Both the position numbers and the translations under genes were made by a program. This document shows, one piece after another, positions 6,581 to 61,682 of a stretch of 64,000 bases of DNA (its first letter is position 1; the number at the start of each line of letters is the position of its first letter). The notes under the pieces are model-generated. The model ran no database searches and was not told where the DNA came from. It saw only the letters and a program-made list of their open reading frames with translations. Source of the stretch: Candidatus Iainarchaeum sp. (GTDB taxonomy: Archaea > Iainarchaeota > Iainarchaeia > Iainarchaeales > DTGL01); the NCBI GenBank assembly GCA_026396995.1, contig JAPLVS010000054.1:24052-88051 (forward strand). Direction: 5' to 3'.

Positions 6581-7849
6581 TTATTTTTCCAGCGGCAGCA
6601 GCTTTGCAAACGCATATTCTTCTGTCTGCAGGTATTGCCTTGAAATGCGCTTGATGTCTGCCGCGCTGACGGCCCTGATTTTTTCAAGGAATTGTTCCGG
6701 GGAATGCCAGCCGTACTGGAGGCTCTCGGTTGCCATTCTTGCCCTGTTGAAGGAATTTTCCATTTCAATTGCCTTGGAGCCAGTCACCTGGCTTTTGATT
6801 CTTGCCAAAGTGCGGCTGTCAACCTCTTTTTTTTGCAGTTTTTAAAATTCCTTCAGCACAAGCCCTTTGGCTTCCTTTATTTTTTCAGGCTTTGTTGAAA
6901 AGTAAACCGCAAATGCCCCGTGGGTTTTTTCAACGTCAAGATAGGCGCTCACCTGGTAGCTCAGGCCTCTTTTTTCCCTTATTTCCTGCAGGAGCCTGGA
7001 GCTTATGCCGCCGCCAAGATAGCATTCAATCAATTCCATTGCAAAGTAATCCTCGTGCCCTGCAGCCATTACCGGAAAGCCGAGGCAGCAGTGCGCCTGC
7101 TCTGCTTTGGTCCTTGACTCCCTTTCCACGGCTTTTGGTTTCATGGGCTTTTGCTTTGCGGTTTTCTTCCTGCCGGGCCTGAAAGAAAATGCGCTTTCTA
7201 TTTCTGCAGTGATTTGCGGTTCAGGCAGGGAAGTTGAAATCCCGAAAACGCAGTTCTTCGAAAGATAGTTTTTCCTGAGGCATTTTCCGAGTTTTTTTGG
7301 GGTTATCCCGCCCACTGTTTTTTCGGTGCCAAGAATGCTTCTGTTGAACGGCGGCTCCAATGCTATTTCCGTAAATTCCTCGAAAAGCCTTTTTACAGGG
7401 TGGTCTTTTACCTCGCGGATTTCATTCAGTATTATTTTTTTTTCGGTTTCAACATGCTTTTCCCCGAAGAAAAAATCGTTGAAGCATTCCCCGAACACCC
7501 TTATCGGCAGGGCAAAATCTGCGTTCTGAATCCTGTTATAATAATGGGTTTCCTCAACCGACGTGAAAGCGTTCAGCTCTCCGCCTTTTCCCTCGATAAG
7601 GTCGAAGGGCTTTTTCCTTCCTAATTTTTTTGAACCGGAAAGGAAAACATGCTCCAGGAAATGCCCGATCCCTGCCTCGCTTTTTTTCTCAAAAACCGGG
7701 CCATAATTGACACAAAAATCAAGGCCGGCGGTTTTGCCTGGAAACGGCTCTATTGCAAGGACAAGCCTGTTCTCAAGCAAAACTTTCTGCATTGAAAGAA
7801 GTTGTTTGGAAAGAAATAAAAAAGCAGGTGGCTTTGCCCCCGCGGTCAC
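6581..7849 (-). pseudogene. M16-family (pitrilysin/insulinase-like) zinc peptidase split into a 335-aa N-part (6842-7849) and a 75-aa C-part (6581-6808) by a frameshift at an A8 run
   Basis: The inverted zincin motif GHFLEH...E lies in the N-part. The C-part carries the typical M16 C-terminal VSAADIKRISRQYL. The two frames overlap at the coding-strand poly-A stretch 6822-6836. Could be a sequencing error rather than a true pseudogene. Confidence 0.6.
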
Positions 7850-32795: not shown

Positions 32796-34718
32796 ATGGC
32801 TTTGTCTGAGTGGAGCGAAGAAAAAGGCTTTTTTGCAAAGAACAAGCCTAAGCGGGAAGAAGGCTCAAACCCTGACAGCGAATGGGAAAAACTCGAGCAG
32901 ACTTTGCTCAGGCGGAAAGACCAGGCCAATTCAATGGATGAGCCTGACGGTGCCCTGATTGCATTGATAAACCAGCTTGATTCCGAACTAAAGGAAAAAA
33001 AGCAGGGCAAGGCAGATGAAAAGGCGCTTGAGCGCTCAAAGGACACGCTGGCAATGATCGATGAAAGGCTGCACGGCACAGACTGGCCTGTGAGGGAACT
33101 GCAGAACAAAGTCAGGAAGGCGGCTGCAGGCGAAAGCAGGGAAGCGATGCCTGCCGCCAGAAAAGCACCGGAGGAAACCAAAATGGCTGCAAATTTTGAT
33201 GTTAAAAAAGAAGAGGAAAAAATAAGGAAAGCCATGGAGGCAAAACTGAGGGAAGCCGGGCAGGCCCAGAAAGAAGACATGTTCGAGGAAGCTGAGCCTG
33301 AAGACCTTGAAGCAGGCGGAAGCGCCGAACCGGCACAGGGCAAGGCTGCAGTCGTGGAAGACGACCTTTTCGAGCCAGAAGAATCCAGGTCGGGTGCGCC
33401 TGAACCGTTGGATGAAGCCGCGGAGGAATCCTTCGAGGAAGAATTCGAGGAAACAGAAAAGCCGGCAAAGGCTGAAAAAAAGGCAGCCGAGCAGCCATCA
33501 AAAAAAGAAAAAAAGGAAGTGTCGCGCGATTCATTCAAGGGAACCGTTGACCTTGAAAAAGCGGAATTTTTGTACAAGGCTTCGGTCAACCAGCTTCTCA
33601 AGGCGCAGCTTGAAAACGGAGCAATCATTCCGACAAGCAGCGAAAAGAGTTATCTGCACATTTACCCGAGGGACCTTGCCTTTTGCACGCTTGCATTGGT
33701 GAAAGCCGAAAGATTCGATGAAGCGCAAAAAGCGCTTGATTTTGCCTTAAGGCACCAGGACAGGAAAACAGGCTGTTTCCCGCAAAGGTGGGACGAGGCA
33801 GGGAACAACAACGGCTACAAGCCGGTGCAGCCAGACGCCACAGCGCTCGTGCTTTACGCTTTCGCAGAATATGTGCTTGAAAAAAACAATGTCGATTTTG
33901 CTGAAGTGAACTGGGACCGCATAGAGAAAGCCATTGATTTTTTGAATTCGAAAATCGTATCAGACAAAAACCTGGTGTTTGCGCCGTCCTCTGTGCACGA
34001 ATTCCCGCCGATGGAAGAAGGCTATGAAATCTGGGCAAATGCGGTTTGCTGCGCGGCATTCAGGGAGCTTTCCAAGGTCGCAGAAAAAATAAAGGCAGAA
34101 TATCTCCCATTGAGCAAGGAAAACGCCCTCAAGGATTCGATGCTGCAGTACCTGTGGAATTCGAGAAAGCAGTGCTTTGTAAAAACCATAAGGCTGAGCG
34201 AATCCAGTTCAGTGATGCTCTGGCCTGATGCCTCTGTCCTCGCTCTTTCCTTCTTTGATGTTTTCGCCCCGAACGACAAAAAAATCGTTTCGACAATAAA
34301 ACTGCTGGATGAAAAATTATGGCACAAGTCTTTCGGCGGAATCTCAAAATTCGGCCCGGTTGAAGGCGTTGAAAAAGGCGGTTTCGGGGCAAGCCCGTTC
34401 TTCTCGCTCCTGCTCGCCGACTATTATATCAAGGCAGGCGACAGGGAGAAAGCCGAAAAGTTCCTGAACTGGGTTATTAGCGTGGGACAGGCAGGCTCGC
34501 TGCCTGAACATGTTTCAACCAAAGAGGATTTCGAGGCGTTCGTGCTGGATTTCGGGGACGCCGGCCTCCTTAACAGGAACACAATGAAGCAGATCAACAG
34601 CGTCAGGGAAAGCGGCGATTTCAAGAACGGCATTGCAAGAATCACTGATCCGTTCTCGATGGCGCACGCCGCATTCATCCTTGTCTGGAAAAACTACAAG
34701 GAAAAATTCATGAAGTGA
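32796..34718 (+). CDS. Protein with a ~250-aa acidic/Lys-rich disordered N-terminus and a GH15-like (glucoamylase/trehalase-type alpha/alpha-6 barrel) C-terminal domain
   Basis: SYLHIYPRDLAFCTLAL matches the GH15 Y-x-x-x-W-x-RD-x-AF motif with W replaced by Y. Repeated helical hairpin pattern downstream. The N-terminal 250 aa are E/K/A low complexity. Confidence 0.45.
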   Translation: MALSEWSEEKGFFAKNKPKREEGSNPDSEWEKLEQTLLRRKDQANSMDEPDGALIALINQLDSELKEKKQGKADEKALERSKDTLAMIDERLHGTDWPVRELQNKVRKAAAGESREAMPAARKAPEETKMAANFDVKKEEEKIRKAMEAKLREAGQAQKEDMFEEAEPEDLEAGGSAEPAQGKAAVVEDDLFEPEESRSGAPEPLDEAAEESFEEEFEETEKPAKAEKKAAEQPSKKEKKEVSRDSFKGTVDLEKAEFLYKASVNQLLKAQLENGAIIPTSSEKSYLHIYPRDLAFCTLALVKAERFDEAQKALDFALRHQDRKTGCFPQRWDEAGNNNGYKPVQPDATALVLYAFAEYVLEKNNVDFAEVNWDRIEKAIDFLNSKIVSDKNLVFAPSSVHEFPPMEEGYEIWANAVCCAAFRELSKVAEKIKAEYLPLSKENALKDSMLQYLWNSRKQCFVKTIRLSESSSVMLWPDASVLALSFFDVFAPNDKKIVSTIKLLDEKLWHKSFGGISKFGPVEGVEKGGFGASPFFSLLLADYYIKAGDREKAEKFLNWVISVGQAGSLPEHVSTKEDFEAFVLDFGDAGLLNRNTMKQINSVRESGDFKNGIARITDPFSMAHAAFILVWKNYKEKFMK

Positions 34719-34808
34719 TATCAAAAGACAGCACTATCAGTATTTCCTAAATGTCTTTTGATAGTTATCAAAGGACAAATTTATACGATTATTTTTGTCC
34801 TTTGATAT
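34717..34808 (+). repeat. Double-hairpin intergenic repeat element, copy A
   Basis: ATATCAAAAGACA-N21-TGTCTTTTGATAGTTATCAAAGGACAAA-N14-TTTGTCCTTTGATA fills the whole spacer between convergent genes. Confidence 0.75.
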
Positions 34809-34811
34809 GAA

Positions 34812-35660
34812 TCAACGCGGCTTTCTGCCCTGAAGTTGCCATTTTTTCAGGGTACGCCTTTGCTGCGACCTGCGCATGGCACTCCTTGAAGGCTGCATCG
34901 GCTTCGGCCCGGCTGCAGGCTTTTTAGGCCGCGGATGCTCGAACTCCTCAAGGGAGCGCCACAATAAATCCAAATCCTTGTTTGAAAGATAGCCCTGTTC
35001 GTTTTTCATTTCTGCCAAAAGCCTTGGCCTCAAGTCGGCGCCAGGGCGCTTTCTTTCCAGGCTGGGTTTTATTTCCGTAACAATTTTTGCCGAGAGTGCT
35101 TTTTGTTTTTTGATGTTTTCTTGTATTTGTTTTGCCAGTGTTTCTTTTTTTGACCCTTCAGGCTGCATTTTTCTTAATTCTCTCAATTCAAAAAGTTGCC
35201 AGTAAAGTTTCTCCAGCTCAACAAAATTTGCGCCGAAAATGTCCCGCATCGCTTTAACTTTTCTGTCCCAAGGAAGGTCTTCGTAACCGATGTTTGTTTC
35301 TTTTTTCCAAAGGTGGCCATAAACGGATTTCAGCATTTCAAGCGACCTTTCCATTTTGAAGGCCGGAATTGCATTGGTAACGAAGTTACGGTGGCTTGGC
35401 TTTGAGACAAGGCCGAGATTCGAGAAGTCAAGGAGCAGGTTTGCTGGAACGGTCGAACCGAAATGATATGAATTCGGAAAAAGGGAAGTGGCTGCTTTTA
35501 CCATGTCCGATTTTACACCAAATCGGGTGGCAAGTGTCCTGATTATAATTCCAGAAATTTCGTGTGCTTTGCTTGGATTGAAGTGCCCCCCCCTCTTTGC
35601 TTGGGCGATGCATTCTTCGATTATTGCATCAATCATTGCCTGTGTGACATTTTTTGCCAT
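34812..35660 (-). CDS. Hypothetical protein
   Basis: 282-aa ORF with a basic C-terminal tail. No motif recognised. Confidence 0.4.
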   Translation of the reverse strand: MAKNVTQAMIDAIIEECIAQAKRGGHFNPSKAHEISGIIIRTLATRFGVKSDMVKAATSLFPNSYHFGSTVPANLLLDFSNLGLVSKPSHRNFVTNAIPAFKMERSLEMLKSVYGHLWKKETNIGYEDLPWDRKVKAMRDIFGANFVELEKLYWQLFELRELRKMQPEGSKKETLAKQIQENIKKQKALSAKIVTEIKPSLERKRPGADLRPRLLAEMKNEQGYLSNKDLDLLWRSLEEFEHPRPKKPAAGPKPMQPSRSAMRRSQQRRTLKKWQLQGRKPR

Positions 35661-38713: not shown

Positions 38714-39373
38714 ATGAGGATCGACAAGCGGACCCTTGAAGCAAGCCCGTTTCTCGGGGTTTTCGGCATCCTCACAGACAAAATATTCCTTGTCCCCTCG
38801 GGCATCCTTGAAAAGGAACTGCAGGGATTGCAGGATTTTGCAGGCGTTGAAGTATTGAAGGCAAGCATTGCCGCTTCCCCGCTTTTAGGCGTCCTTGGAA
38901 TCGGCGTTAAAGAAAAGATAGCGGTTTCGGACCTCGCAAGGGACAGGGAAATAGTTGCACTGGAAAAGGCAGGCCTGAAGGTCACAAGGATTGAAGGTGC
39001 CACGGCGCTCGGCAACCTTGCGCGCATCACCGAAAAAGGCGGTGTTTTGTCACCCATACTTTCAAGAGAGCAATGCGAAAAGCTCGAATCCTTTTTCGGC
39101 GTGAAAATGGTCGAGAGCACTGTCGCAGGCCTTGACCTTGCCGGTTCAAGCATTGTGGCGAATTCGAAAGGCTTCATAGTGCACCCCGGGGTTTCAAAGG
39201 AAGAGTTCGCCCGCATAAAGAACGCATTGCAGGTAGAGGGCATTCCTACAACCGCGAACTACGGGGACAGGTTTGTCGGGAACAGCGTTCTCGTGAACAG
39301 CAATGCGATGCTTTTGGGCGTTAACACTACAGGCCACGAACTGATGAGGATTGAGGAGGCGTTTTTGGGCTAG
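38714..39373 (+). CDS. eif6: Translation initiation factor 6 (aIF6)
   Basis: Five-fold pseudo-repeat with SPFLGVFGILTDKIFLVP / SPLLGVLGIGVKEKIAV. 219 aa. Confidence 0.85.
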   Translation: MRIDKRTLEASPFLGVFGILTDKIFLVPSGILEKELQGLQDFAGVEVLKASIAASPLLGVLGIGVKEKIAVSDLARDREIVALEKAGLKVTRIEGATALGNLARITEKGGVLSPILSREQCEKLESFFGVKMVESTVAGLDLAGSSIVANSKGFIVHPGVSKEEFARIKNALQVEGIPTTANYGDRFVGNSVLVNSNAMLLGVNTTGHELMRIEEAFLG

Positions 39374-39383
39374 CATTCTTAAC

Positions 39384-39470
39384 ATCAAAAGGCATTGATT
39401 CAGGAATTTTTCTGGCCTTTTGATAACTATCAAAGGGCAATATTGTTCATTTATTTTTGTCCTTTGATAT
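39384..39470 (+). repeat. Double-hairpin intergenic repeat element, copy B (diverged)
   Basis: ATCAAAAGGCA...GGCCTTTTGATAACTATCAAAGGGCAA-N16-TTGTCCTTTGATAT lies between eif6 and rplX. Confidence 0.6.
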
Positions 39471-39542
39471 AACGCATAAAAAACCATTCATCCATTAATT
39501 TTTGGAAATATTAATTTTTTGGAAATTCCAGTTGGTGAGAGC

Positions 39543-39722
39543 ATGAGGTTTGAATTGAAAGGTGTTTTCCAGCAGAAAGGCAATGAAAAGCCGTTCTGCA
39601 AGAGCATAGAGGCCGAAAACGAGGGCCGCGCAAAGGAAAAGCTCCTGAGTCTTTTCGGTTCGGAGCACAGGCTCAAGAGGCGCTCTGTGAAGATAACCGA
39701 AATCAATAAATTAAAGGAATGA
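39543..39722 (+). CDS. rplX: 50S ribosomal protein LX (L18Ae/L20A)
   Basis: MRFELKGVF...FCKSIEAENEGRAKEKLLSLFGSEHRLKRRSVKITEI matches the LX pattern (F.V.G.F...A.nee.A.e...S.H). Confidence 0.6.
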   Translation: MRFELKGVFQQKGNEKPFCKSIEAENEGRAKEKLLSLFGSEHRLKRRSVKITEINKLKE

Positions 39723-39726
39723 CTAA

Positions 39727-39816
39727 TATCAAAAGACATTAATAATGATATTTTCTAAATGTCTTTTGATAGCTATCAAAGGACAAATTTATGCGATTAT
39801 TTTTGTCCTTTGATAC
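39727..39816 (+). repeat. Double-hairpin intergenic repeat element, copy C
   Basis: ATATCAAAAGACA-N21-TGTCTTTTGATAGCTATCAAAGGACAAA-N14-TTTGTCCTTTGATA lies between rplX and pfdA. Confidence 0.75.
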
Positions 39817-39845
39817 AATAAGTACATTGTTTGAGAGGTGAAGCG

Positions 39846-40313
39846 ATGGCCAAGGAAAAAACACAGAACAAAGAGGTGAGGCTCAGCCCCCAGCAGCTTG
39901 TTTCATTGTACCAGAACCAGCGCGCTTTAATGGACAACCTGCTGCAGCAGGAAGCGATGATGCAGGAAGCCGCAAGGGAAATAATCGGCGCAGAGGACGC
40001 CCTCAAGGAAATAGACAAGGCCGAAGAGGACGCTAACGTCCTGGTGTTGCTTGGCGCAGGCGTTTTCGTTGAAGCGAAAGTGAAAGGCAAGCAGGTAAAG
40101 AGCGACATAGGCAGCGGAGTGGTTGAAAACGCCACTGTAAAAAAAGCGCTTGAGCACCTTGAAATAAAGAAGAAAAACATTTCCGCAAATATTGCAAAGC
40201 TCCAGAAGAAAAAACAGGAAACCGCAGCGGGCCTTGCAAGGCTTGAAGGAATACTCCAGCAGGTGCAGAAAGCGCTGGCCAAAAAGGACACTTCGCCCTC
40301 AAGCGTTTCCTGA
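39846..40313 (+). CDS. pfdA: Prefoldin subunit alpha
   Basis: Coiled coil - beta hairpin (VLVLLGAGVFVEAKV) - coiled coil, about 155 aa, in the conserved position before ftsY. Confidence 0.7.
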   Translation: MAKEKTQNKEVRLSPQQLVSLYQNQRALMDNLLQQEAMMQEAAREIIGAEDALKEIDKAEEDANVLVLLGAGVFVEAKVKGKQVKSDIGSGVVENATVKKALEHLEIKKKNISANIAKLQKKKQETAAGLARLEGILQQVQKALAKKDTSPSSVS

Positions 40314-61097: not shown

Positions 61098-61445
61098 TCA
61101 CAGCAGCTTGAGTTTTCCTGTGAATTTGTTGATTTTGCTTTCTTCGGCTGGGCCGATGCCGATGCATGTGGCTGTGCCAGGCTCCACTTGTGTCCTGCCA
61201 GCATCCTTGATGAGCGCGCACGGCACTTCCTTTTTTGCCTGCATGAACAAGTCCAATAATTCTTTTTCCGAATTTACCTTGAGCACGATTTTTGGCATTC
61301 CGCTGTTTTTCCATTCCTCGACAAGGCCTTCGTCCTGCACTTTGTCGAGCGCTGCGAGAGAGGCGTGCGCTGCCTGCGCCGCAATCTTGCCTGGCTTCAT
61401 TTTGAGGTCTTTCCTCACAATTATCGCCTGTTTCAGTGAATTCAT
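61098..61445 (-). CDS. pth2: Peptidyl-tRNA hydrolase, archaeal type (Pth2)
   Basis: KQAIIVRKDLKMKPGKIAAQAAHASLAA...TQVEPGTATCIGIGP is the PTH2 signature. 115 aa. Confidence 0.85.
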   Translation of the reverse strand: MNSLKQAIIVRKDLKMKPGKIAAQAAHASLAALDKVQDEGLVEEWKNSGMPKIVLKVNSEKELLDLFMQAKKEVPCALIKDAGRTQVEPGTATCIGIGPAEESKINKFTGKLKLL

Positions 61446-61509
61446 GCAATTTCCCGTCCAAAACCCCTTCAGGTAATATTTTTATAGGACAAGCCCCTAT
61501 TTTATTCTT

Positions 61510-61598
61510 ATATCAAAGGACCAAAGTAATGTATAAATTGGTCCTTTGATAGCTATCAAAAGACAGTTAGAAAACCAGTAATGCTGTCTTTTGATATT
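61510..61598 (-). repeat. Double-hairpin intergenic repeat element, copy D (inverted orientation)
   Basis: Its reverse complement reads ATATCAAAAGACA-N19-CTGTCTTTTGATAGCTATCAAAGGACCAA-N13-TTGGTCCTTTGATA. It sits in the divergent promoter region between pth2 and 61683-63476. Confidence 0.75.
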
Positions 61599-61682
61599 AA
61601 TCGATTAATCGCCGAGGCTGGTTGGGAAGGGAGCGGAAAAGGCTGGAATTGCGGTTGGGTTTTGGTTCGGGCGGTTTTGGGA

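Follow-up and report, generated by a model that had tools for sequence, protein, structure and literature searches.

Double-hairpin intergenic repeats of Iainarchaeota as a probable family of miniature inverted-repeat transposable elements

We identify the double-hairpin repeats of a 64-kb archaeal window (the whole stretch of DNA that was analysed) as, very probably, copies of a miniature inverted-repeat transposable element (MITE). The element is small (84–92 bp, ~88 bp), non-coding and free of open reading frames, and it is bounded by terminal inverted repeats, TATCAAARGACA...TGTCYTTTGATA. It is flanked by a duplicated TNA triplet, occurs in many copies and has an empty counterpart site in a close relative, and it is this combination of properties that defines a MITE. 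The family has been active since the divergence of closely related Iainarchaeota species. Among the labels offered by a first-pass annotation of this DNA, archaeal MITE-like repeats is the correct one. Rfam returns nothing at the copies when the whole window is searched at gathering thresholds; with permissive E-values over 39300–39900, the top hit, to a miRNA hairpin model, reaches 25.7 bits where the cut-off is 88.

Four copies, A to D, were described in the window, and all four are present with the two-hairpin architecture originally reported. The half-site TATCAAARGRCM, with at most one mismatch, occurs 17 times in the window where 3.5 occurrences are expected, and 16 of the 17 lie within the four copies. 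A covariance model built from 48 copies and run on the window with filters off returns exactly these loci and nothing further above noise. On both strands, every copy forms two hairpins, with folding energies of about -30 to -36 kcal/mol (z = -6 to -10). Copy coordinates are given without the duplicated target, and the features are as follows.

34716..34718, + strand: left target-site duplication of copy A, TGA, which is the stop codon of a 640-aa gene
34719..34807, + strand: probable MITE, copy A (TATCAAAAGACA...TGTCCTTTGATA), two hairpins; from pattern, covariance model and folding
34808..34810, + strand: right target-site duplication of copy A, TGA
39380..39382, + strand: left target-site duplication of copy B, TAA
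39383..39469, + strand: probable MITE, copy B, second subfamily (CATCAAAAGGC.../GGGCAAT...)
39470..39472, + strand: right target-site duplication of copy B, TAA
39724..39726, + strand: left flank triplet of copy C, TAA
39727..39815, + strand: probable MITE, copy C; from covariance model and an orthologous copy in a relative's contig, L041
61511..61596, - strand: probable MITE, copy D, in reverse orientation; from pattern and covariance model
61597..61599, - strand: target-site duplication of copy D on its hairpin-1 side, TAA on the - strand

Genes neighbouring the four copies were called by codon usage and their Pfam families checked, and under these calls every copy is strictly intergenic, as had been claimed. 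Copy A lies between the stop codons of two convergent genes, 32796–34718 (+) and 34812–35660 (-). Copy B, whose 5' end reads CATC rather than TATC, is flanked by eIF6 (38714–39373) and the ribosomal protein L18Ae/LX gene (39543–39722), and copy C by this same LX gene and the prefoldin alpha gene (39846–40313). Copy D occupies a divergent spacer, with a PTH2 gene (61098–61445, -) on one side and a probable secreted protein gene (+) on the other. The partner of its TAA lies at 61508–61510, and its second hairpin carries a compensatory GGACC/GGTCC pair. The right triplet of copy C (39816–39818) is CAA, which makes its duplication imperfect.

The case for transposition rests first on the flanks. 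When the three bases outside TATC...GATA are compared, 39 of 52 copies are enclosed by a perfect 3-bp direct repeat of the form TNA (TAA, TTA, TCA or TGA). In 10,000 shuffles of the flanks, such matches average 18.7 and never exceed 30. Left and right counts are 28/22 for TAA, 17/20 for TTA, 3/3 for TCA and 1/1 for TGA, so that TAA or TTA makes up 45 of the 52 left flanks. Only two copies match in inverted orientation, which identifies the triplet as a target-site duplication rather than an extension of the terminal repeat. A perfect duplication is absent from the other 13 copies, most of which are one base off.

An empty site provides direct evidence of insertion. Contig L041 (JAZDDY010000092) is the orthologous stretch of a close relative, ~94% identical locally. 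Where the window reads CATTCT-TAA-[87-bp element]-TAA-CGCATAAAA at copy B, the relative reads CATTCT-TAA-CGCATAAAA, with a single TAA. Copy C, in contrast to copy B, is common to both organisms: its orthologue in L041 differs at 1 position in 89 nt and has the same imperfect TAA/CAA flanks. One insertion thus occurred before the two organisms split and one after. Across the family, insertion sites are common only to very close relatives. The idea that copy C is under extra constraint was dropped, as one difference in 89 is marginal against the ~94% local background. Relatives of the eIF6 locus were also sought in metagenome contigs for further empty sites, and none was confirmed there. By exact-protein look-up, the eIF6 protein is found in one 1.6-kb Logan contig that ends inside copy B, while the LX and PTH2 proteins have no record.

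The internal structure of the element is built from its own ends. The terminal sequence is repeated twice internally, back to back (…TGTCTTTTGATA GC TATCAAAGGACA…), which together with the copy at each end makes four occurrences of the terminal repeat; any single strand can therefore form two hairpins. An alignment of 48 copies shows no variation in the outer 9 bp of any of the four arms, and this holds equally for the outer arms, which the search pattern left free. The central 16-bp palindrome, previously described as perfect, is indeed so in copies C and D; A (GTT) and B (AAC) depart from it at one position each. ACATTAA is nearly invariant in the outer arm of hairpin 1, and runs of T4–T6 occur on the + strand of the element. 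Forterrea-like genomes contain short variants of 55–75 bp that have lost most of both loops and kept all four arms. It is unusual for a terminal repeat to be present fourfold, and for termini to be conserved across a whole DPANN lineage, as they are here.

Conservation of the stems had been attributed to selection on structure. Our alignment does not favour this explanation, since the outer 9 bp are invariant in sequence and compensation occurs at only a few inner positions, a pattern that recognition sequences for a transposase, present in repeated form, would produce. Compensatory changes are nevertheless present: in the 48-copy alignment, A-T is replaced by G-C at pair 10-40 (5 rows) and at pair 61-95 (7 rows), and doubly changed cells number 25, where shuffles give 7.1. 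This residual covariation of the arms suggests that hairpin or cruciform pairing, or copy correction from arm to arm, also matters. Independent protein-binding sites alone would not require the arms to covary.

The family extends well beyond the window. An exact scan with CTTTTGATARYTATCAAAGG, covering one genome per species (the window's own genome is not among these representatives), finds 61 loci, 52 archaeal and 9 bacterial. The 9 bacterial loci lie in coding sequences and have no outer arms, and they were rejected as chance matches. The 52 archaeal loci come from ~15 assemblies labelled Candidatus Iainarchaeum, Ca. Forterrea, Diapherotrites or unclassified archaeon, and all have the same architecture; NCBI taxonomy places both Iainarchaeum and Forterrea in the phylum Iainarchaeota. 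The dispersed family predicted from the four window copies is therefore real, and it is restricted to Iainarchaeota MAGs and SAGs. Pattern-based searching of genomes, as the first-pass annotation had advised, adds ~51 further copies in ~15 species-level genomes. Assembly JBDRIL01 contains 19 loci and JAZDDY01 contains 7, besides the 4 copies of the 64-kb window. In a metagenome scan with the 16-mer end ATATCAAAAGACATTA, the real copies among the matches listed are L092, L123 and L152, and the remainder are chance. Viral contigs contain no match to the central 20-mer.

Polarity is fixed throughout, with the hairpin of AAAAGAC arms preceding the hairpin of AAAGGAC arms. Loops are near-identical within a genome and different between genomes, a pattern that fits recent intragenomic amplification. 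The loop differences earlier taken for free drift are largely subfamily structure: the window contains two subfamilies, one comprising A, C and D and the other B. Hairpin loops also flip independently, and all four orientation combinations are found among near-identical copies in JBDRIL01.

The duplication of a 3-bp TNA target on insertion implies a staggered 3-nt cut, made by a DDE-type transposase that acts in trans. The four arms are putative binding sites for this transposase; as recognition sites, they would be conserved while the loops would be dispensable. Judging by the duplication signature alone, the mobilizing enzyme may belong to the IS5 (IS1031-like)/PIF-Harbinger group. Copies would persist wherever insertion is harmless. 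Stop codons of the form TAA or TGA are themselves TNA targets and would be regenerated by the duplication, which could explain why copies often sit flush with gene ends. Effects on transcripts, through the stable hairpins, the T-runs or the TATA-like ACATTAA, would be side effects and not the reason the family exists.

In the search for an autonomous partner, ~440 kb of Iainarchaeota sequence yielded no open reading frame between matching inverted repeats or between any inverted repeats of at least 13 bp, and no multi-copy open reading frames. A solitary element end in L024 was considered as the end of an autonomous element and rejected, being a remnant in a divergent spacer. The element ends (TATC...) show no resemblance to the single IS1031-group end with which they were compared (ISLrh, GAACCTG...). 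Ca. Forterrea multitransposorum is reported to carry a propagating transposon of ~1.5 kb (PMC5905446); the paper describing it reports transposons without giving their ends or mentioning MITEs (PMC5905446). We regard this ~1.5-kb transposon as a candidate partner of the MITE, and as a lead.

With a codon-usage gene caller that finds the genes expected at copies A to D, the genomic context of 44 copies could be classified: divergent spacers hold 15 of them, convergent spacers 5 and tandem spacers 24, where intergenic length predicts 12.7, 6.4 and 24.9 (chi-square p=0.68). As spacer proportions follow length, there is no indication of a selected terminator or promoter role. Divergent and tandem spacers together hold 39 of the 44 copies, which hence adjoin a gene start. 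Copies in tandem spacers favour one orientation by 18 to 10, a bias that is not significant (two-sided binomial p ~0.18, a hand estimate). In each of the five convergent cases, the spacer before insertion measured 1–12 bp, and in 8 cases, copy A included, the duplicated triplet doubles as a neighbour's stop codon.

Copy A illustrates how such a fit arises. It had been said to fill a 94-bp spacer between convergent stop codons exactly, and this was taken as a sign of a bidirectional terminator. The fit is indeed tight, in a spacer of 93 bp (34719–34811). Copy A fills this spacer because it inserted into the TGA stop of the 640-aa gene, at a place where the convergent stops were originally 1 nt apart, and the TGA was duplicated on the opposite side. 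The fit is thus a by-product of insertion. For the family as a whole, mapping against gene 3' ends shows enrichment neither there nor in convergent spacers, and the 5 of 44 copies between convergent genes are what intergenic length predicts.

These observations bear on whether the element could instead have been kept for a host function. In one such reading, the element serves the host as a regulatory module: it would be a promoter or operator that moves, or a Correia-like element since co-opted, with arms that are bound by a regulator of the host or by a domesticated transposase, and with AT-rich loops whose TATA boxes drive the genes alongside. We consider this quite unlikely. Of 51 copies, 36 have a gene start beside their hairpin-1 end; these starts rest on a crude caller. 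In many cases the distance is only 23–57 nt and a GGTG resembling a Shine-Dalgarno motif stands just before the ATG, so that a separate promoter would have scant room. The window's tRNA and SRP RNA genes are preceded by an ATTAAA(A/T) box to which the ACATTAA of hairpin 1 is similar, and conservation of the termini across a phylum-level lineage would suit a retained function. However, the distribution over spacer types equals the length expectation and the tandem orientation bias lacks significance, and the loop-deleted variants persist without the putative TATA sequences. The LX gene's prior upstream region is intact downstream of copy B, so this gene needed no promoter from the element, and the restriction of shared insertion sites to very close relatives also argues against this reading. 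On a smaller scale, the ACATTAA of hairpin 1 may contribute a promoter to neighbouring genes. A broader proposal holds that the four-arm palindrome is kept across Iainarchaeota because these DPANN archaea, with their tiny genomes, use it as a portable regulatory or RNA-processing cassette, a counterpart of the Correia element, in which hairpin 1 supplies promoters to genes 23–57 nt away and loop flips reflect active inversion or hairpin copying rather than rare replication errors; we hold this to be unlikely.

Two further explanations take the hairpins themselves as the key. That the element is a structured RNA or bidirectional terminator selected for its double hairpin, as the first-pass annotation proposed, appears very unlikely. 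Both strands do form two very stable hairpins (z = -6 to -10), some changes are compensatory, copies A, B and C come close behind stop codons and T4–T6 runs are found on the + strand of the element. Archaeal termination, however, relies on oligo-T tracts and not on hairpins. That copies arrived by transposition is clear from their target-site duplications and from the empty site, and these copies are not concentrated at gene 3' ends or in convergent spacers. Moreover, the stems are conserved in sequence and not merely in pairing, the free flips of loop orientation would alter any RNA loop sequence, and Rfam offers no match. The remaining explanation, a REP/BIME-like or IS200/IS605-derived palindrome mobilized in single-stranded form by a tyrosine HUH transposase that recognizes hairpins, is in our view extremely improbable. 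It would account for two adjacent similar hairpins, for arm-to-arm covariation and for loop flips reminiscent of hairpin-templated copying, and the great shrinkage of arm spacing without loss of the family would suit recognition of a folded hairpin. HUH/Y1 transposition and the spread of REPs, however, are not known to generate target-site duplications, whereas 39 of 52 copies here have a 3-bp direct duplication, confirmed by the empty site, and the ends are true terminal inverted repeats.

Reading the family as a MITE places it beside several known systems. Prokaryotic examples include SM1–SM4 of Sulfolobus, haloarchaeal MITEs, the Correia/NEMIS elements of Neisseria and pneumococcal RUP. Like these, the Iainarchaeota element is small and non-coding, with terminal inverted repeats, a short target-site duplication and many intergenic copies; it likewise shows similarity within genomes and presence/absence polymorphism, and its transcripts would fold into stable hairpins. 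Unlike other prokaryotic MITEs, it is restricted to Iainarchaeota and combines a fourfold terminal repeat with two palindromic halves in a fixed order, A-type then G-type. Its duplication is a 3-bp TNA, where Correia and RUP duplicate TA. REP/BIME elements are likewise dispersed intergenic palindromic units that occur in pairs and form hairpins. REPs are not known to have target-site duplications or terminal inverted repeats and are tied to RAYT transposases; the Iainarchaeota family has both features, and the analogy to REP/BIME elements drawn earlier fails on mechanism because its copies carry target-site duplications.

PIF/Harbinger elements are eukaryotic, related to IS5, and are the parents of Tourist MITEs. 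Within the IS5 family, whose insertion sequences occur in bacteria and archaea, 5'-TNA-3' is the preferred target of the IS1031 group, for which a 3-bp direct repeat is reported as exclusive (PMC12016507). The Iainarchaeota element shares this 3-bp TNA target duplication, and its ends, TATCAAARGACA, are unlike IS1031-type ends such as GAACCTGTCTAGTATCT in ISLrh. PIF/Harbinger elements are reported to generate 5'-TWA-3' duplications with a preference for AT-rich targets (PMC4482050). The Iainarchaeota element, like PIF/Harbinger and Tourist elements, has a 3-bp duplication at mostly TAA/TTA targets, as seen in the left flanks; unlike the eukaryotic elements, it also uses TCA and TGA.

Our data supply a readily recognized mobile-element family for Iainarchaeota (Diapherotrites), DPANN archaea with ~1 Mb genomes whose mobile DNA is barely characterized. 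In the literature, we found no paper on Diapherotrites or Iainarchaeota that describes such elements. MITEs have been catalogued in bulk for 8,220 archaeal genomes (PMC11602168), and the family may already be listed anonymously in that census. Insertions differ between genomes that are ~90% identical, which makes the element a marker of recent transposition and usable as a strain marker. It accounts for contig breaks in assemblies, such as the end of the Logan contig in copy B, and it points to a putative transposase that recognizes TATCAAARGACA. It also corrects an interpretation that such double hairpins readily invite, as terminators or small RNAs, and it opens no new category of biology.

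The position of copy D bears on the annotation of its neighbour. A long open reading frame can be read from 61581, inside the copy; its true start is more probably ~61683, where a signal-peptide-like segment begins. The window is archaeal in content, with an archaeal SRP RNA and six tRNA genes.

Among the MITE copies of JBDRIL01, an Iainarchaeota assembly with 19 loci of this two-hairpin element, the stretch enclosed by the two arms is found in both orientations, for hairpin 1 and hairpin 2 alike. All four combinations of loop orientation are represented in copies that are otherwise near-identical.

Loop 1 flipped: L001, L018, L050
Loop 2 flipped: L006, L051
Both loops flipped: L046, L053, L057, L123
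Neither loop flipped: L004, L021, L049 and others

The presence of loops in both orientations implies inversion across 12-16-bp inverted repeats, which may have come about by template switching or, alternatively, by hairpin copying during transposition.

Some copies are naturally shortened to 55-75 bp by deletion; they retain all four arms, with one or both loops reduced to a few bases.

L022:1265-1334, short variant
L027:4637-4705, short variant, an insertion orthologous to that in L022 (two Forterrea-like genomes)
L035:4306-4362, short variant
L044:3731-3807, short variant

In Ca. Iainarchaeum andersonii (AQRS01000042, L014:5525-5694), two copies lie head to tail with only TAA between them; the second is a more diverged short-loop variant, and a related short-loop copy is carried at the end of contig L011. 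A lone MITE end at L024:1940-1965, TGTCTTTTGATA followed by TAA, is located in a divergent spacer with glycosyltransferase-like genes on either side and is probably the remnant of a decayed copy. Besides the MITE, JBDRIL01 contains another small palindromic repeat, whose core TTGTATGCCTTCGGCATACAA has flanks including AAAGTTTTATCAAAAAA.

L028:2460-2640, second palindromic repeat, inserted into loop 1 of a MITE copy (nested elements)
L001, about 2560-2650, second palindromic repeat
L046, about 7130-7230, second palindromic repeat

Within the window, copy B (39383-39469, + strand) follows the eIF6 gene. Comparison of window positions 39371-39382 with L041, the orthologous stretch of a close relative, indicates that the eIF6 reading frame of L041 continues through CAG and terminates at the TAA that constitutes the MITE target, whereas that of the window is terminated by TAG two codons before this TAA. 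The insertion site of copy B was therefore the ancestral eIF6 stop codon. Further downstream, at about 39504-39520 and upstream of the L18Ae/LX gene, the window carries a 17-bp tandem duplication (TTAATTTTTGGAAATA TTAATTTTTTGGAAAT) that is absent from L041. A 1632-bp contig from public short-read data (L182, Logan SRR20698647) encodes an identical eIF6 protein and breaks off in copy B, inside its loop 1; assemblies of the window's organism are thus fragmented by the repeat.

Beside copy D (61511-61596, - strand) lies the gene of a 631-aa protein, to which Pfam gave no match; its longest open reading frame has an ATG start at 61581, inside loop 1 of the element. At residue 35 the protein enters a hydrophobic stretch resembling a signal peptide, so the true start of this gene is probably at about 61683.

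An ATTAAA(A/T)/TTTAAA box, likely the TATA-box consensus of this organism, is found upstream of all listed tRNA genes and the SRP RNA gene of the window, starting 27-43 nt ahead of the mature 5' end.

tRNA genes with the box: 11341, 14117, 14248, 52080, 55585, 55700
SRP RNA gene with the box: 19917
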